Of a stretch of DNA of 64,000 nucleotides, positions 14,528 to 22,500 are shown one piece after another. How positions within the stretch are numbered: the first letter of the stretch is position 1; each line of letters opens with the position of its first letter. Where the stretch lies: NCBI GenBank assembly GCA_958009085.1, contig OY253682.1:248001-312000 (forward strand), given 5' to 3'. The DNA is from Protoeuglena noctilucae (Eukaryota). The notes under the pieces are model-generated. The model had not been told where the DNA came from. It did not search any database and saw only the letters and a program-made list of their open reading frames with translations. A program made the position numbers and the translations under genes.

Positions 14528-15327
14528 CGATGATGATGTGCAGTTCAATAGCTGAGGGTGCTGAGGTCCATCAGGATCCTCGCCGCACGAGCTAGGCCCG
14601 CGCGACGGGCGCCTTCGCCCAGAGCTGCCGCACCCCGGGGGTTCCATTATCGCAGTGCATATGGCACTTGGCCCGCCCCCGCTAGGTCCCCCCACCCGAA
14701 GGCTATGGGGCCGCCGCCCCGGGCTCCAGCGCCCCTAGCCCCTTCGCCGAACCGCCGCCCCTGCCGGGACGAGCAACCGCAGGATGCCACGCGAGCGGGC
14801 CCCTGGGTACAAATACAACAACGAAGCAACGAAGCAGAGACAAGCCCCCCTGCCGCGGCGCAGAGCACTTTCGCCCCATGCTAACAACGGACCCCACCCT
14901 GGTCCCACCGGCGCGGTCCCCGCGTCCCGCCGGTCGCTCTGCGTCCCCGTCACGAAAGCCTGCCGTCCCTCTGCACGCACACAGCGCGCAGCGCCCCGAA
15001 AGCCCCCCTAGACTCGGGGGCGCGGCTTGTCCCGACCAGCAGAACTCGAGCGCGTCGTGCTGCCGCCTGGCGCCTGCCAGGGGATATGCGACCGCATCAG
15101 CCGTCGCGAATGCACGCAAAACACCCAACCGCACCCCCTCGCCAACTCGCCAGCCTCCGCCTTGGCCAAACCACCGCCGAACCACCGCACTGCGCGCCAC
15201 CGCGCCATTTTTTGTGAACCGGCTCTTCGTCACCGGCCGCAAAGGCGCGGTGTCCAGAGGGCGCCACGAGGAGGCGGCCGGCGGATCGCGATGATGATGT
15301 GCAGTTCAATGGCTGAGGGCGCTGAGG
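14528..15327 (+). repeat. 39-bp direct repeat pair (14528-14566 and 15289-15327) carrying box C/D-like motifs
   Basis: cgatgatgatgtgcagttcaat(a/g)gctgaggg(t/c)gctgagg occurs twice with 2 mismatches; it contains ATGATGA and two CTGA. Confidence 0.85.
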
Positions 15328-15461
15328 ATCGCGCCATCGCGCGTCCGAGTCCCCCCGTCCCTGGGCCCTGGAGGTAAAGGTGTGCTGGCAAGACTCGAAC
15401 CCCCGACCTCTTAGTGAGCAGCCATAGGAGGTGCTGAGGTTGGCTTGGGATGGCGAAGGGC

Positions 15462-15465
15462 AAAA
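15462..15465 (-). terminator. RNA polymerase III T4 terminator of tRNA-Arg
   Basis: TTTT on the minus strand, 1 nt after the discriminator base. Confidence 0.65.
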
Positions 15466-15466
15466 G

Positions 15467-15540
15467 CGAGGACGGAGGGATTCGAACCCTCAACCTTCCG
15501 CTCCGGAGGCGGATGCGATAGTCCATTACGCTACGTCCCC
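15467..15540 (-). tRNA. trnR-CCG: tRNA-Arg(CCG), intronless
   Basis: Minus strand reads GGGGACG...TCCGC-CT-CCG-GA-GCGGA...GAGGG-TTCGAAT-CCCTC-CGTCCTC-G: 7-bp acceptor stem, anticodon arm with CCG and a canonical T-arm. CCA is not encoded. Confidence 0.95.
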
Positions 15541-15752
15541 TTCGCGCGACTCGAACCCGTCCCTGCTCGGATGCGTTCTCTACCAATGGCAGGGGACGTA
15601 CGTCCCGACACATTTTCCCGGGCGTGAAGGCGGAGTATAACAGGGTCCGAAGGGTCTCTGCCAGAGTCTGGCGCTTTCGTCACGATGCAGGCGGCTTTAC
15701 ACCGCCCTTTCGAGCGTCTGGCCCCCACCGGCGCGATCTGGGGGGTCTCACC

Positions 15753-18700
15753 ATGCTGCGGCCGCGGCCCGGTGCCTTCCCGGGGCCCCGCGCGGCCCGC
15801 GTCCGGGCACACGGCACCGACGTGCTGCCGGGGCCGGGAATCGCGCCCTGGCTCGCCTCCAGGGGCGCCCGCCACGGCGCGCAGCTCGTCGTCGACGATA
15901 GCACCGAGGTGCCGGCCTCCGCGGTGCCCTGCAAGACCCTCGTCGTGCGCGTGGGCCGATCGCGCGTCGTGGCCGTGCTCCTCGAGGCGGCCGCCCGCCT
16001 GGACGCCAGGGCCGTCGCCAGGCACCTCGGTCTCAGCCGTGACAGGGCCGCGCTGGTGCCGGAGGATGCCCTCGTCGCGCTGACGGGGTACGAGGTGCGA
16101 AGGCCGTGTTGCGACGACGGCGAATGCGCAGAGTCTGCGGCCAGGATCGCCGGGCCGACCATTCCCCCCGCATCCTCGCATCCTCGCAGCCGGGCGTGGT
16201 GCCCCCTCTCGGCCACGCTTCCGCCCTGCCCCTCCTGGTTGACTCGGCCCTCGTGGGCTGCCCTGCCATCCTGTGCGGGTCCGGCCACCCCTCCCACCGC
16301 CTCCTCCTCTCGTGCGACGACCTCCTTACCCTCGCTCCGGACGCCACCGGTGCGCAGCCAGTGTCACCATGCACGCCCTCACCCCTGCCTCACCCTCACC
16401 CTCACCACTCCCGTCCGTCTCGCTTCACGTTCCCCACCCCAGCCTCACTCGGTGCCCCTCAGCCCCCCCTTCCCCCGCAGTCGCGCCCCTCACCACCTCG
16501 AGCTCGCCCGTCCCCTGCGACCCACCGCCCCCGCGCCCCGCCTCTCCGGCCTCCTTAACAGCCCCAGCCGCGTCCACGAGCACCGCGCTGCCGGCAGACA
16601 CCCCCGTCGAGCTCCTCGCGAGGGTGGCCTCGGCGCGGCGCATGGCCAAACGCCTCCTCTTCGCCACCGTGACGCCGTCCTCGGCGCCTCTGCCGGACAC
16701 CGGGGACCACGCGGCCGCAGCGCTGTGGCGGGTCCCGGGAGTGACCGCCCCATGCTCGGTGCAGCTCATCATGGGGAAGACCCTCGAGTTAAAGCTGGGC
16801 GGGCGAGAGATGGAGGCGTTCCTGTCTCGGATCCGCCGCGGCGCCGTTCTGCGGGTGCGGGGCGTGGTGAAGGGGGAGCGTGCGCGGTCAGGCAGGGCGC
16901 GGGCGTCGGAGCCGGCAATTGATGTGGTGGCGGCGGAGGTGGAGGTGCTGCAGGAGTGGGCGGGGGGCGAGGGTGGTGGGAGCGCAATGGAGCCTGCGAG
17001 TCTCGGAGAGGGCGGTCTGGATGCGATGCGACGAGACGCTGGAGTCGTGGCCGAGGGGGCAGGGCATGCCGACCGTCAGGGTAGTGATACTGATATTGAT
17101 ACTGGTGGTGGCAGCGACGATACGGACAAGGGCGGCAGCAGTGACGCGCGCATGGATCTCAGATCCGTGGGGCAGAGCGGGAGGCGTCTGGTGGAGCTCC
17201 TTTGCGACGCCGGCGGAGGTGCGTGTGCGCGCGCAGCTATGCCGGGCACCTGCCCCGGCTCCTTTTTTCTGCACCCGCACCCACACCTGCACCCACCCAC
17301 GCCCACGCGCAGTGGATTCAGCCGTGAGCCCCGACCCAGACGCCGTGGCGAGGGTCGTGGCGAGAGCGGCAGCGAGAAAGGCGGCCTTTCAGGACAAGAA
17401 GGGGCGGAAGGGTGCAAGGGGGGCCGCGTCCGACACGCCCGATCCGGCGGCGTTCTGGCAGTGCCCGCTGCCAGAGACCAGCATCGTGGTGGTGGATGAC
17501 GTCCCTGGGCTGCTGGCGTGCTGGGCGGTAGTCACGGGCACGGCGCTGCAAGTGCCAGGGTACCCGGGGTCCCAAGAGCCGAGCCCACCGTCACTAATGG
17601 ACTCGCAGCTCGGGGACGGGGCAGCAAAGGGCGATGTCTCTGACGATGAGGCCAGGGACGACCGGCAATCCAGGGCGCGTGAGGCGCAGTCCACGTCGGC
17701 ACCTGCACGCGTGTGCGGGGTGGACGCCGAGTGGGACCCTGACGGTCCCTCCCTGCCCCGCACCCCCGTGAGCCTGCTCCAGCTCAGCACGCGCGACCGG
17801 TGCTTCGTCCTCGACCTCCTCGCCCTCTGCCGGTCGCCCCACGCACGCATCACGGACCAGGCAAGTCGACTGGCAGCTAGTCATGGGCAGCACCCACGAC
17901 TCGCTGCCTTGCTAGCACCCACAACCGCCCAGTCATATGACGGCTCCTGAGTCTACGAGGCTCCCCGCAGGGCTCGGGACCGGTCGAGCTGCCCGAGGAC
18001 GTGACGGCCCTTTCTGATGCGCTGACTCAGCTGACTCAGGCGGGGGCGAGCCCCGGGTCCCTGACAACACAGGGCCTCACCGTGCCAGAGCACGTCCTCA
18101 GCGCAATGCTCTCCGACATCTGGGTCCGCCCGGACGTTGCAATTCTCGGCTTCGGCCTCGCCTACGACCTCACGCGGCTCCACTGCTCCTACCCGCACCT
18201 CCCCTGCTGCGGGGGCGCGGGGCGGGTCGTGGGGCCAAGCGCCCCGGGGGTCCCCGCAGCCACGCTCGGCATGCAGGCGTTCGAGGCTCCCTCGCCGCCC
18301 CCGCTGCGCACCCACGTGGATGTCCTGGCGCTCGCCCGGCTCTGCTCACGTCCCCTGGCGGCCACGCAGCGCGTCTCGCTGTCGCGCGTGTGTCAGCGGA
18401 TGCTGGGGCGCCCGCTGGACAAGTCCCAGCAGTGCTCCCGGTGGTCCTCGCGGCCGCTGTCGCCGGAGCAGCTCCGGTACGCCGCCTGCGACGCGCACGT
18501 TCTGACGGCCGTGTTTGACAAGTGCCTGCAAGTGGGGCTCAAGCCACCCTCGCGCGGCTGGAAATGGCTCGCGGCAAACGTCGGGGTTCATCGGTCGGCT
18601 TTTGCAGGTGAGAGCCAGGCTGCGCCTCTGCCGCGGCACGCTTTCACCTGATGGTCGGCACGGCACGGCGGTGGGGTTTGCACCAGCGCCGGTGTGCCTG

Positions 18701-18849
18701 TCGCTGCACAGCAAGAAGTGAAATGCCGAGAGACCTCTCCTGAACCCTTTGGTAGCTGGAACTGCGAGCTGCTGCTTTTGTTTGCTCTCGCAGGACCCAT
18801 GGCGTCGGTCGCGCCGCAGCGGTACGTGGTTTGGGAGGAGCCCCGCTGA
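15753..18849 (+). CDS. YbaK/ProX-like tRNA-editing domain + OB-fold + DEDDy 3'-5' exonuclease (RNase D/Mut-7/EXD-like) fusion, probably organelle-targeted
   Basis: Six exons join in frame. YbaK motifs: CKTLVV, LDARAVARHLG, LTGYE|PGVVPPLG, LLVDSAL..ILCGSG. OB-like segment: ARVASARRMAKRLLFATV...VQLI...GAVLRVRG...VVAAEVEVL. Exonuclease: ExoI GVDAEW, LLQLST, ExoII FGLAYDL, LDKSQQCSRWSSRPLSPEQLRYAACDA (ExoIII). Arg/Pro/Ala-rich N-terminus. Confidence 0.85.
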
Positions 18850-19521
18850 CCGTGTCGTGTCAGTCTTAGTGATTGCGTCGATGTGCGTGATTGTGTCAGC
18901 AGCGCAGTCGGCTTTCAAAACGTCCTCGTGCCTGCTCAGGGGACTGCTCAAGGGATCCTAACCCCTGGTGGGCCGCCGCGCTCCAAACGGGAAACCCGGA
19001 AAACTTGGCTTGTTTCTAGCAGCCCATTCTATGGAAATCAAGGCACGTGTGCATGTGCCGGGCCAAGTCCAATGCAGCGGCGGTGTCAAAGCACGATTGG
19101 GCGGCCAAGGTGCAGGGCGGAAGCAACGGCATGCGTTCTGCTAAGTACACGCAGATGCAAGCTGATGTGACTAGGGAGGGGTGTGGTTGTCTAGAAATCG
19201 GCTTAGTGCGCGATGGGGGGTGGGGATTTGAATCCAGGGGGGTTTGTGCTGTGACGCCGCCCCGCGCTCGTCCCTTGCACTAGAGCATGGAGCAATTCTA
19301 TGCTTACGATGTGTTCGTGCGATGCGTTGTCTCTGCGAGGGAGCGAAGGGAGAAGACCATCTCTATCAGGTGCGTTTCACTTGTTATGGGCGCCTGGGCG
19401 CGAGTGACCCGGGAAGCGACAGTGTGGAGTATGCGGATCGCGAATGGCGGGAGCGCTTATCGCCCCGCGGGGTCCGGTGCGGTGGTCCGAAGGTGGCCGC
19501 GGCCTGAGCACGCGGGTGTGT

Positions 19522-22500
19522 CTAGGGTGCGGGGGGGGTCTCGATGCTGCCGCGCATGCTGGGGCGGGAGTGGCCCCAGAATTGGAAAGGGAGGCTGCCG
19601 TTGGGCAGCGAGACGCGCGCGTCGATGCCGTCCGCGTCGATCTGCTTCTCAGGGTCCGCGTCGATCTGCACCTTGATGTTCTCTCGGAGGGCGGTGCGTG
19701 CGGCGATGAGCTGCGGGGCAGGGGGGGCGAAGCAGGGTCACGGGCTGGCGACGGCAGCTGTGCTTGGCGCTTGTGAAGCATCTGTTTGTGTCAGCGCCCC
19801 CTGCAGTGCTGCTTGACAGACAGGCATAGACTGCAGCTGGCTGTCATCGCCAGCACCGCAGGTGCCGGTGCCTTGCCACCCCAGTCCAGCTGGAAAGCCA
19901 AGGCAACCGCATAGCTCTATGCTCATGCATTATGAGCATCCGGCTAGGTCAATATCACCTTCTTGCGGACGTCCATGTAGCGCGTGAGGCTGGTGAGCTT
20001 GGAGCCCGCGATGGAGCAGGCCAGCACCAGCGACACGATCGGGATGAAGCTGAACGTGGAGCTGGAGGATATGATCTTGAATTGGATGGAAGCCACGGGG
20101 ATGGCCTCGCAGAAGATGGTCACCATGTCGCCGTGCAGGCGCGTCAGCTCGCGCTCCAGGTGCTCGACCTGGGACCAGGGAGGGGAGGGGGAGGGAGGTG
20201 AGGGAGACGAGAGGCGAGGGGAAGAGAGGTGAGGAGAGGGGAGGTGAGGAGACGAGAGGTGAGGCAATGAGCCAGGGACGTTGCCCCATTTGCAGAGTGC
20301 GTGCCAAGGTGATGCATACCCATGCACGGCACCTGGCAGCCACCCCACGCACCCCACGCACCCCTCGCCACACCCACCTCATCCATGTGCCCGACGTCGC
20401 TGCGCCGCAGCGCGTGCAGAGCCTCGTCGATGTGCTCTCTCTGCACGTCCCGGCCCTCGGTCATTGCTCGGAAGCTCGCTCGCTTGGCCACCTGCTTGGC
20501 GCGTGCAGCCACGTACGCCCCCGCGTCTCCCTTCTTCTGCACCAGGATGCGGACCAAGAGGCTGGCGGCCTGGAACACGGTGAGGAGTGAGGAGAGGAGC
20601 GCAATGACGAGGAAGATGTAGCAGACGGGCAGGAGGTTGTGGAAGTGGTCGTTGGATGGCAGGGTGATGAACACCACGAGGGCGAAAGTGAGGACATCAC
20701 CGACGTTGAATACGACATCCAGCACTGCGGGGGCACGGGAAGGTAGGGAGGTCGAAGGCGGGGGGCCTCGTGTGTGGAATGCTGCGTGGAGAACCCCGGG
20801 GTGTCAGCCAAGGCGTTAATATGGAGAGGCGACACTGGCTAGCTCGCCCAGTCACAGCGGAAACAACGCCCTGCCCAAGCTCGCCATCCATGCGGAGTGG
20901 AAGGGGCCATCCCCGCGCTCGCTGCCCCACTCACCGATGCAAACGGGTTCCGAGAACACCACAGACATGAACTTGTCGAGGCTGAGGTGTCCGGTCTTGA
21001 TGGCCCAGCCCATGGCGACCACGGCAGCCACTGCGATGGTGGCCAGCACAGCCAGCAGCACGTACAGCGTCAGTTCCCGGGATGACTTGGACTCGTTGAG
21101 AATCGAGTGATTGTCGCATTGCAGGAGCTCGGCCGCGTGGGCGCCGGAGCCGTCGAAGCCCACAGGCTGCATGCGGGCGTCGCGCACGGGCTTGGCGAAG
21201 TCGATGCTCGCTTGTCCGTCCTTGATGGCGTGCACATCTCCGAATATCCATCCCGTGAACGTGGCCAGCGTCTCTGTGTCGGTCGTGCACGTGGAGCCCT
21301 GCAGAGCATGATGCAGAGTGCCACGTCACGCTGCGGTGTATTCATACGGGCCAGTCTGGAGTGTGAAGACGCAAGCAAGCGCGATGTGCTTGGGGGAGGA
21401 CATGAGAGAGTTCGGCAGATGCATGTAACACCCCCGCCTGCTCACCTGGTTCTGCCGAAGGATGAAGTGGTAGGCGACATCGAAGCCGTCCGTGCCGTCG
21501 ATGGGGAGGGTGACGACGGCGTCCTTGGCGGCAGTCAAGGTGTCATCCAGTGGGTGGAAGCCGATCGTGCCGGCTTTGCTGATCAGGGAGCTCGCCGTGA
21601 AGCTGTAGTCGACGTCGGTGTCGACCGTGTTGGAGCAGGCAGACCATGAGAAGGCAGGGTATGCCCCTGTGAGGGCCTTGGTGGCCACAGCACGTTCCGC
21701 GGAGTTGGACGGCGGGCACAGCACGGTCGGGGACGCCGCGTTGGTCACGCCCATGGCCGCCCACACGTCCGCCCTGCGGAGAGCGTAGATGGGGTGTGGG
21801 CGTGCTGCTAGACGGCAGCGATGCTATCAAGGGCCTGCGCACTCAGCAGCCGGGCTGCAAGGTGGTCCAACCAACAGTCACCCATCGACTCACCCAGCGA
21901 TGTTCCCAGAGATGATCTTGGCGAGCGTCTCAAGTGTCACGGTCGTCAGCGTGGGTGCCGCTGAGGGGCATGACGTGGTGCTCTCGCAGGTGTTGACAAA
22001 GACGGCCGTGGTGATCTGGACGAATGGGGCGGCCACCGTGTCTGCGGGGAGAGCACCAGGCGGTGCCTTGATGGCGGCGGGCGTTGGTGGCCTTTGCATT
22101 GGCGCCCCACTTGATGCCCACTCAACCACCCTCAGCACACACCCCCAGCCCTCACCCGACGTCCCGCTCCACCACGACTCCCCCTCCTGAGACACGGGCG
22201 CAATGAGGGGCTCGTTGGCCTTTTTGCTGGCCCACAGTGCCTGCCAGTCAGCTGAGGATCTGCTGGTCGCGATGGCCGTATACAGCACGGTGAGGTCCGC
22301 GTTGACCGAGATGAAACTGCTCGAATAGAGCGCCATGATGGCCTGCGAGGGAGACATGGGATGCATGCGACACCCGTCGCACCGCGGCACACAGCACTCC
22401 CGCATCCAGCACTGGTACATCTCCCGCGTGTCACACCTCGAGGTTGCTTGGCCCGCTGTAGTAGATGGGGATCTGCAGCCCCGCGTCCGGCTGCGCCAGG

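Follow-up and report, generated by a model that had tools for sequence, protein, structure and literature searches.

Trans-editing deacylases of the INS/YbaK superfamily have been described as single-domain factors that only return a mischarged transfer RNA (tRNA) to the uncharged pool. In the accessible parts of two sources, INS-superfamily domains are known solely as aminoacyl-tRNA deacylases (PMC11286415, PMC11295145), and a lysine and a GXXXP loop are the catalytic features common to the characterized members (PMC11286415). The second source, a 2024 review, presents the family members outside ProRS as single-domain proteins in the portion available (PMC11295145). Known exceptions append small domains: the C-terminal domain of plant ProXp-ala, the N-terminal domain of Trypanosoma MCP3 and ProXp-ala-ProRS. 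Here, we analyze a gene in a 64-kb window of Protoeuglena noctilucae DNA, where the window is the whole stretch of DNA that was analyzed and all coordinates are positions within it. The gene lies on the + strand at 15753-18849, has six exons, and encodes an 826-amino-acid protein in which a predicted INS-type deacylase is fused to a predicted OB-fold and a predicted 3′-5′ exonuclease.

Bacterial ProRS likewise holds an INS-type deacylase in cis with an anticodon-binding module, and the available text of the review describes how its anticodon-binding domain keeps the tRNA anchored during the visit of the CCA end to the INS editing site (PMC11295145). The anticodon-binding domain of ProRS is of the class IIa alpha/beta type and reads G35/G36, whereas the fusion protein carries a class IIb-like OB-fold; ProRS also has an aminoacylation domain, while the fusion protein is without one but has an exonuclease. 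Our preferred reading, to which we assign a probability of roughly 0.45, is that this is an expressed single gene from a conserved algal family whose INS deacylase, class IIb-type OB-fold and Nibbler/Mut-7/WRN-type exonuclease would carry out an anticodon-anchored deacylation, followed by trimming of the tRNA's 3′ end. We found no description of the architecture in the literature searched, from which most subscription journals were outside coverage; a first-pass annotation of this DNA, made by a model from the letters alone, had also known of no such characterized protein. What is plausibly new is the conserved architecture and a coupled activity. It is not a categorically new system, because each of the three domain families is known and public databases already contain the proteins, unannotated.

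The three domains and their described relatives

The N-terminal domain is encoded by two exons. Exon 1 (15753..16094, + strand) contains the ATG, a 26-residue N-terminus rich in Arg, Pro and Ala, and the first half of the YbaK/INS (tRNA_edit) domain with residue K61, while exon 2 (16190..16349, + strand) contains the second half and the GXXXP loop. The CKTLV motif (amino acids 60-64, nucleotides 15930-15944) places K61 at 15933-15935, and the PGVVPPLG motif (amino acids 115-122, nucleotides 16190-16213) supplies the loop G116-V-V-P-P120 at 16193-16207. Pfam family PF04073 (tRNA_edit) matched exon 1 across profile positions 15-74 (E = 9.5e-7, 29.4 bits) and exon 2 across positions 75-122 (E = 6.4e-7, 29.9 bits), both above the cut-off of 25.5 bits, and also matched 19/19 of the full-length relatives scanned. 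With the two halves of the match abutting exactly at the splice between exons 1 and 2, and with an exonuclease match in exon 5 (E = 4.4e-13), the fusion-gene reading stands well above chance. When aligned with 35 homologs, K61 falls in the family's Lys column and a G-x-[VI]-P-P motif is kept in all 35. The YbaK/ProX-like domain with its Lys and loop, as proposed by the first-pass annotation, is borne out by these matches.

Within the superfamily, the family's profile best matched the deacylases of known structure APE2540 from A. pernix (1WDV, E = 8e-20) and TTHA1699 from Thermus thermophilus (2CX5, E = 2.6e-18), with weaker matches to YbaK proper (2.7e-13 and 1e-12) and a weaker one yet to ProRS's INS domain (1e-4). 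The accessible part of the 2024 review labels 2CX5 as ProXp-x (PMC11295145). The YbaK equivalog, NCBIfam TIGR00011, was not reached by the window's exon 1 (20.5 bits versus a cut-off of 153.25); four of the five relatives scanned matched it at 16-66 bits, far below the cut-off for YbaK proper, and P0015 had no match. On the sequence evidence, the N-terminal domain is a member of the INS/YbaK superfamily and a predicted aminoacyl-tRNA deacylase. It resembles the trans-editing deacylases APE2540 and TTHA1699 in its tRNA_edit fold, Lys and GXXXP loop, and differs from them in its fusion to an OB-fold and an exonuclease, where the review, in the part available, has single-domain proteins outside ProRS (PMC11295145).

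The middle domain is encoded by exon 3 (16481..17218, + strand), together with a preceding Pro-rich linker and a following acidic, disordered linker rich in Gly, Ala and Asp. The OB-fold core extends from about amino acid 207 to 327 (~16597-16959), includes the motifs ARRMAKRLLF (amino acids 219-228) and IDVVAAEVEVL (314-324), and has three family-invariant residues: R220 (16636-38), F228 (16660-62) and Q262 (16762-64). An AlphaFold2 model of the exon 3 translation (246 amino acids), built with an alignment of 25 relatives, had a mean predicted local distance difference test (pLDDT) of 71; its residues 40-160 are mostly in blocks with a pLDDT of 81-97, with two 10-residue blocks at 69-72, and its residues 160-246 are disordered. 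The order of its elements (strand, strand, short helix, strand, two helices, strand, strand) is the OB topology. The first-pass annotation had set the folding of this region as an OB-fold as a test beforehand, and the model returned that topology along with Foldseek and VIA-align matches to synthetases.

Comparing the model to the PDB with Foldseek yielded 17 matches at E ≤ 1e-3, and the top 21 among the rows listed were all LysRS, AspRS or AsnRS. Using VIA-align on Foldseek's top 1000, human AsnRS (8h53_C) had a Z of 10.7 (root-mean-square deviation of 2.7 Å across 99 residues) and M. tuberculosis AspRS had a Z of 10.2 (26% identity), and both superpositions cover the whole N-domain of the synthetase. 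A Foldseek-independent search of 48,161 chains put AsnRS on top (Z = 10.2) with AspRS at 8.9, and all 50 rows listed look like OB-folds, judged by their titles. The modeled structure makes the OB-fold assignment a solid one. A five-strand topology in which a helix separates beta3 from beta4 is common to the family's model and the N-domains of class IIb AspRS, AsnRS and LysRS. In contrast to these synthetases, the fusion family carries 20-25 additional residues between beta2 and beta3, among them an invariant Pro and an invariant Trp, and no catalytic domain follows the OB-fold.

We then compared the three invariant residues to the positions where class IIb enzymes contact the anticodon. Against the N-domains of E. 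coli AspRS, LysRS and AsnRS, put together in a small alignment, hhalign matched the family's OB-only profile (A4) across 81 columns (probability 25%, E = 7.7e-4), putting R220, F228 and Q262 on AspRS R28, F35 and Q46. In human LysRS, according to the accessible part of its description, F144 stacks on U35/U36, and the same nucleotides receive salt bridges from R136, Q155 and E195 (PMC11643047). The R-to-F spacing is 8 in human LysRS and in the fusion family alike; judged by this spacing, the E. coli and human class IIb residues are presumably equivalent.

The exonuclease spans the remaining exons. Exon 4 (17313..17860, + strand) encodes the rest of the disordered linker and, from about 17474 onward, the start of a DEDDy exonuclease with its ExoI motif; exon 5 (17971..18607, + strand) encodes the rest of the domain with ExoII and ExoIII; and exon 6 (18794..18849, + strand) encodes the final 18 codons and the TGA. 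VDAEW (amino acids 550-554, nucleotides 17720-17734) contributes D551 and E553, AYDL contributes D662 (18166-68), and YAACD (18478-18492) contributes Y766 and D770, which completes the five-residue DEDDy signature (ExoI D-x-E, ExoII D, ExoIII Y-x3-D). Across 35 full-length relatives, four of the five columns (D, D, Y and D) do not vary, and conservation of the E column is at least 90%. Pfam family PF01612 (DNA_pol_A_exo1) matched exon 5 (E = 4.4e-13, 49.9 bits versus a cut-off of 23.6). Exon 4 alone had no Pfam match at E ≤ 1; it aligns with the ExoI region of all 35 relatives, the exonuclease N-termini of homologs match there by tblastn, and the relatives match PF01612 over most of its 173-position profile (positions 2 to 172).

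RNase D acts on tRNA 3′ ends, and Nibbler is an RNA 3′-end trimmer. Against solved structures, the family's profile best matched 7jw2, an ‘exonuclease mut-7 homolog’ (4e-28), followed by the WRN exonuclease (5e-19), EXD2 (6.7e-17), the ExoIII region of E. coli RNase D (1yt3, 1.2e-10) and Rrp6 (~3e-9). Foldseek on a homolog's model listed the Aedes and Drosophila Nibbler EXO domains (7jw2/7jw6, 1.5e-11), then WRN, Rrp6 and RNase D. The RNase D equivalogs were not reached by the relatives (TIGR01388, 23-48 bits versus 298.95; NF008089, 16-32 bits versus 516), and no HRDC domain was reported in Pfam scans of the window's exons and the relatives. The first-pass annotation's ‘RNase D-type’ exonuclease thus kept its complete DEDDy set and lost its label, which is too specific for relatives so far below the equivalog cut-off and nearer to Nibbler/Mut-7 and WRN (7jw2 at 4e-28 versus 1yt3 at 1.2e-10). 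By profile and fold comparison, the C-terminal half is a DEDDy 3′-5′ exonuclease nearest to Nibbler/Mut-7 and then the mouse and human WRN exonucleases, not to RNase D, which shares the DEDDy superfamily and ranks below Nibbler, WRN and EXD2.

The likeness ends at the exonuclease domain itself. Canid Mut-7/EXD3 homologs carry the Mut7-C domain (PF01927), whereas neither the window's exons nor the 25 relatives scanned have it, leaving only the exonuclease domain in common. The DEDDy residues are alike in Nibbler, Mut-7 and WRN, but the fusion family has long insertions between its Exo motifs, and the N-terminal partners of Nibbler and WRN are unlike the fusion protein's YbaK-like domain and OB-fold. 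A word search with exon 5 for longer proteins missed the algal fusions: its only matches were mut-7 homologs of animals and a pair of metagenome proteins. The former include canid ‘exonuclease mut-7 homolog’ proteins, which share 37-38% identity with exon 5. An ESM Atlas look-up gave a lead with a score of 0.75 to a chlorophyte ‘exonuclease’ cluster and nothing more.

Distribution and domain variation of the family

The algal fusions that the exon 5 word search had missed were revealed by an exhaustive phmmer search with exon 3. Across 1.84 billion representatives, it found 38 proteins at E ≤ 1e-3, with the match falling at about residues 200-400 of the long relatives. When 25 of the 38 were scanned with Pfam, 19 had both an N-terminal tRNA_edit and a DNA_pol_A_exo1 domain, 5 were short (331-471 amino acids) with tRNA_edit only, and 1 was an 82%-identical fragment without a match. 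A second search, using the OB-only profile, found 50 proteins; according to their precomputed domains, 25 have both flanking domains, 21 have the exonuclease only, 3 have tRNA_edit only and 1 has neither, and the exonuclease is therefore kept in 46/50. As a separate observation, the short relatives P0022 and P0034 have an Asn at the position of the YbaK Lys, and P0034 is sourced to the diatom Cylindrotheca fusiformis.

The named members are green algae (Micractinium tetrahymenae, Pedinophyceae sp. YPF-701, [Myrmecia] bisecta, Botryococcus braunii and Nannochloris sp. ‘desiccata’), a pelagophyte (Pelagophyceae sp. CCMP2097) and diatoms (Cylindrotheca fusiformis, C. closterium, Seminavis robusta and a Bacillariaceae metagenome-assembled genome). 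Their annotations read hypothetical, unnamed or ‘3'-5' exonuclease domain-containing’, and other automatic names are ‘prolyl-tRNA editing enzyme YbaK/EbsC’ and ‘Exonuclease mut-7’. A quick IQ-TREE tree of 29 rows (7 of 36 were dropped as near-duplicate or truncated) pairs the window's protein with the Pedinophyceae protein (36% identity; Shimodaira-Hasegawa-like approximate likelihood ratio test, 94), a pairing that is tentative because the window's protein has a long branch. The first-pass annotation had proposed an architecture search across algae, and the searches showed both flanking domains in 19/25 relatives, with named family members from green algae, diatoms and a pelagophyte. As judged from these sequences, the fusion is a conserved family architecture and not a one-off.

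The distribution and the N-terminus together raise one alternative function. The protein may be an organellar enzyme for tRNA 3′-end maturation or repair, in which 3′ trailers or damaged CCA ends are cut back by the exonuclease for a CCA-adding enzyme to rebuild, while the YbaK domain is a separate trans-editing factor tethered by the OB-fold to the same tRNAs; there would be two independent activities and no ordered pathway. All of the named family members are photosynthetic eukaryotes, the window's protein starts with MLRPRPG in an N-terminus that is rich in Arg, Pro and Ala and has few acidic residues (first 40 positions: 7 R/K, 1 D/E), and there is a more distant match to the RNase D/Rrp6 superfamily, among whose members are enzymes that process tRNA 3′ ends. 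However, the N-termini of many homologs are unreliable because they stem from metagenome contigs with prokaryote-style gene calls, and the relatives' low RNase D equivalog scores and the absence of HRDC in any scan also speak against it. Targeting to an organelle is suggested only by the Arg/Pro/Ala-rich N-terminus of the predicted protein. We consider this organellar alternative unlikely.

The family also varies in its linkers and its C-terminal end. The linker at amino acids 168-206 is rich in Pro, Ala and Ser and the one at amino acids 328-470 is rich in Ala, Gly and Asp; both are long and disordered. In one relative (P0023/P0052), ankyrin repeats (Ank_2, E = 1.1e-17) occupy approximately residues 219-316, between the YbaK-like domain and the OB-fold, indicating that the inter-domain linker tolerates the insertion of whole domains. 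The window's protein ends 61 residues past the ExoIII Tyr, while most relatives continue for ~240 or more residues beyond ExoIII into a folded domain; the short-form relatives P0018, P0021 and P0023 are without it. Using tblastn with 12 homologs, this roughly 200-residue domain had no match anywhere in the window. In the model of P0025 (861 residues), it occupies residues 690-852 with a block pLDDT of ~79-93, and the Foldseek listing for that model was filled by exonuclease matches. It is weakly DUF3427-like (P0015 residues 696-786, E = 5e-5, below the cut-off), and DUF3427 is a precomputed domain in P0059 and P0061.

A proposed coupling of deacylation and trimming, and its alternatives

We now consider how the three domains could work together. 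We infer that the fusion protein selects a tRNA, deacylates it and trims its 3′ end. The OB-fold would anchor the anticodon loop of a subset of tRNAs, on the basis that the invariant R220, F228 and Q262 sit where class IIb enzymes read U35/U36. The anticodon and the acceptor end of a tRNA are ~70 Å apart, and flexible linkers would allow both catalytic domains to reach the acceptor end. The deacylase would then take off the esterified amino acid. Since 3′ exonucleases do not act on esterified 3′ ends, deacylation would come first; the amino acid would otherwise block the exonuclease. Finally, the exonuclease would shorten the CCA end or degrade the tRNA. As a result, the chosen aminoacyl-tRNA or damaged tRNA would be removed from translation, and not merely recharged.

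An anticodon-anchored deacylate-then-trim model is the most economical, because INS domains are deacylases, esterified ends resist exonucleases, and ProRS offers a precedent. Its weakest step is the identity of the substrates, which would be U35 tRNAs provided that the R/F/Q triad has the role it plays in class IIb enzymes. Extending the model, the family as a whole might be a so far unrecognized type of enzyme of tRNA surveillance or regulation, an anticodon-directed ‘deacylate-and-trim’ machine that reads U35, strips the amino acid with its INS domain, removes the CCA with its Nibbler-type exonuclease and, in the long forms, adds a DUF3427-like reader of a modified base; we hold this extension tentatively and regard it as rather doubtful. 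A U35-selecting enzyme would withdraw one tRNA subset from algal translation, either irreversibly or in a way that CCA repair could undo.

The conserved fusion suggests that editing can be coupled to the destruction or inactivation of a tRNA's 3′ end, and that a free-standing editing factor can rely on a borrowed synthetase module to choose its tRNAs. This would, if true, be a new branch of tRNA quality control and of stress-linked CCA-end regulation, and would give a function to a family whose entries in algal genomes now read ‘hypothetical protein’, ‘YbaK/EbsC’ or ‘exonuclease mut-7’.

Several observations weigh against this reading, beginning with the OB-fold. In the search of 48,161 chains, the OB-folds of PolC (Z = 9.6), MCM (8.7) and RPA (8.6) scored within 1-2 Z of the synthetases, and the class IIb subtype is consequently favored in the model by only a small margin. 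Pfam family PF01336 was not reached by the window's protein (12 bits, E = 0.21, versus a cut-off of 27 bits) and appeared in 2/19 relatives at E ≥ 0.19 only. The OB-only profile had no significant match among PDB sequences, where SSB and PriB appeared at E ≥ 0.4, and the hhalign probability for class IIb N-domains was just 25%. The class IIb-like OB-fold of the first-pass annotation therefore held for the fold and for its best structural neighbors, the class IIb N-domains, and failed at the level of the Pfam profile. In addition, the full-length homolog model has a predicted template modeling score of 0.41, which makes its inter-domain geometry not usable.

The flanking domains add further points of the same kind. 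Of the 33 aligned rows that reach the column of the catalytic Lys, 5 have Asn there instead; these five rows (P0016, P0039, P0044, P0050 and P0051) form a single clade with 100% support in the quick IQ-TREE tree, a sister clade within the fusion family that differs in this respect from the INS/YbaK deacylases. We call the clade diatom-type because of the source of P0034, which is an indirect link. It keeps the G-x-[VI]-P-P motif, and the tRNA_edit-like domain in this clade and in the diatom relatives may be inactive or repurposed. Moreover, 21 of the 50 proteins matched by the OB-only profile, including named diatom proteins, have no precomputed tRNA_edit domain. The conserved core may thus be the OB-fold and the exonuclease, because the Lys is lost in one clade and tRNA_edit is unrecognized in these 21/50. 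To our knowledge, the nearest exonucleases, Nibbler, WRN and EXD2, are not tRNA enzymes, and RNase D is more distant. Many relatives also seem to carry the weakly DUF3427-like domain; in bacteria, according to the accessible part of its description, DUF3427 is the modified-cytosine target-recognition domain of SauUSI-type DNA restriction enzymes (PMC6765204).

These points lead to a second alternative, in which the working unit is the OB-fold and exonuclease acting on substrates other than tRNA. The candidates are the 3′ ends of small RNAs, as for Nibbler/Mut-7, and single-stranded or modified DNA, as for the WRN exonuclease and EXD2. The OB-fold would be a generic single-strand binder, and the YbaK-like domain would be regulatory, ligand-sensing or vestigial. 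The closest solved exonucleases, the retention of the exonuclease in 46/50 family members when both flanking domains are found in just 25/50, the Lys-to-Asn change in the diatom-type clade, the OB profile's sole sequence matches to SSB and PriB (all insignificant), and the DUF3427-like ends of the long-form relatives are all consistent with it. However, the Lys and GXXXP loop are intact in the window's protein and its green-algal relatives, and G-x-[VI]-P-P is kept even in the Asn clade, which argues for selection on a pocket for the acceptor end. An anticodon-binding subtype is indicated by the OB-fold's top structural neighbors and by the invariant R, F and Q, and no role for INS domains other than aminoacyl-tRNA deacylation appears in the accessible parts of the sources (PMC11286415, PMC11295145). 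On balance, we find this alternative somewhat unlikely; were it right, an INS-fold domain would have been recruited outside of aminoacyl-tRNA editing.

Gene structure, transcripts and surroundings

The gene's joined exons have 2481 nucleotides, or 826 codons plus the TGA, with zero internal stops, and its start at 15753 is the first in-frame ATG downstream of an in-frame stop. We compared the window to sequencing runs with matching content: four marine metatranscriptome runs from one study, containing 24-51% of the window's sampled words, and DNA runs containing 96-98% of them. Contigs from three RNA libraries (X1, X2 and X3) and one DNA run (X5) were compared over positions 15000-19500. All five introns are on the + strand and are skipped in RNA contigs: intron 1 (16095-16189, GT..AG, 95 nucleotides) in X2; intron 2 (16350-16480, GT..AG, 131 nucleotides) and intron 3 (17219-17312, GT..AG, 94 nucleotides) in both X1 and X2; intron 4 (17861-17970, GC..AG, reading GCAAGT...CCGCAG, 110 nucleotides) in both X1 and X2; and intron 5 (18608-18793, GT..AG, 186 nucleotides) in X1. 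The joint of intron 4 is ambiguous by 4 nucleotides, and the in-frame choice is 17860/17971. None of the five spliced joints is present in the DNA run X5 across the compared region. The first-pass annotation had read one spliced frame with four junctions (16094/16190, 16349/16481, 17218/17313 and 17860/17971); these are exact in the RNA contigs, a fifth was found at 18607/18794, and every motif that it quoted (CKTLV, PGVVPPLG, the middle segment, VDAEW, AYDL and YAACD) is present in the frame.

The RNA contigs connect the exons in groups. One X2 contig (record 7) joins exons 1, 2 and 3 up to 16765, another (record 8) runs from 17030 in exon 3 via exon 4 into exon 5, and an X1 contig (record 4) joins exons 4, 5 and 6. 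The start-codon region is uncovered by the contigs of X1 and X2, which is a coverage gap and not evidence of absence. All contigs are in frame with a single coding sequence, though contigs cannot prove a single molecule. The fusion gene is a genuine, expressed and single spliced gene.

The fusion could still be an artefact, either of two adjacent genes or of a chimeric contig or gene model. The observation that points this way, and so also counts against our preferred reading, is that no RNA contig covers the whole coding sequence and that 16785-16997 is unbridged by RNA contigs at 99% identity. That stretch, however, lies inside the one open exon 3, and the spliced contigs on both sides are in frame. 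A contig from the X3 RNA library, from a related strain with 18 differences, spans 16644-17020, and the same domain order recurs in 19/25 independent relatives, many of which are single open reading frames on intron-poor contigs. An artefact is very improbable.

In the related-strain X3 contig, 149 nucleotides (17020-17170) of the low-complexity linker are swapped for 14 other letters, and contigs of X5 and X2 have loose ends at 16945 and 16991, in the exon 3 linker (window 16917-17170). The acidic, Gly/Asp-rich linker on the 3′ side of the OB-fold is hypervariable among strains, which is probably why the RNA contigs break in 16917-17170. Library X3 also has an unspliced piece at 16057-16346 and therefore contains DNA or pre-mRNA.

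Upstream, a tRNA-Arg(CCG) gene at 15466..15540 on the − strand (ARAGORN; Rfam RF00005, 65.6 bits, E = 3.7e-13) is head-to-head with the fusion gene, ~210 nucleotides from its ATG. It is the sole tRNA gene of the 64-kb window, and an Rfam scan of 14800-19600 found nothing beyond it; its position beside a putative tRNA-acting enzyme is probably a coincidence. Farther upstream, the word depth in X5 is 390-586 at 15000-15301 and 313 at 15302-15452, compared to 47-64 in most bins of the gene, and both RNA and DNA contigs break with loose ends at ~15288-15290 and 15356. The region 15000-15356, just upstream of the tRNA gene, seems to be the border of a multi-copy repeat or mobile element.

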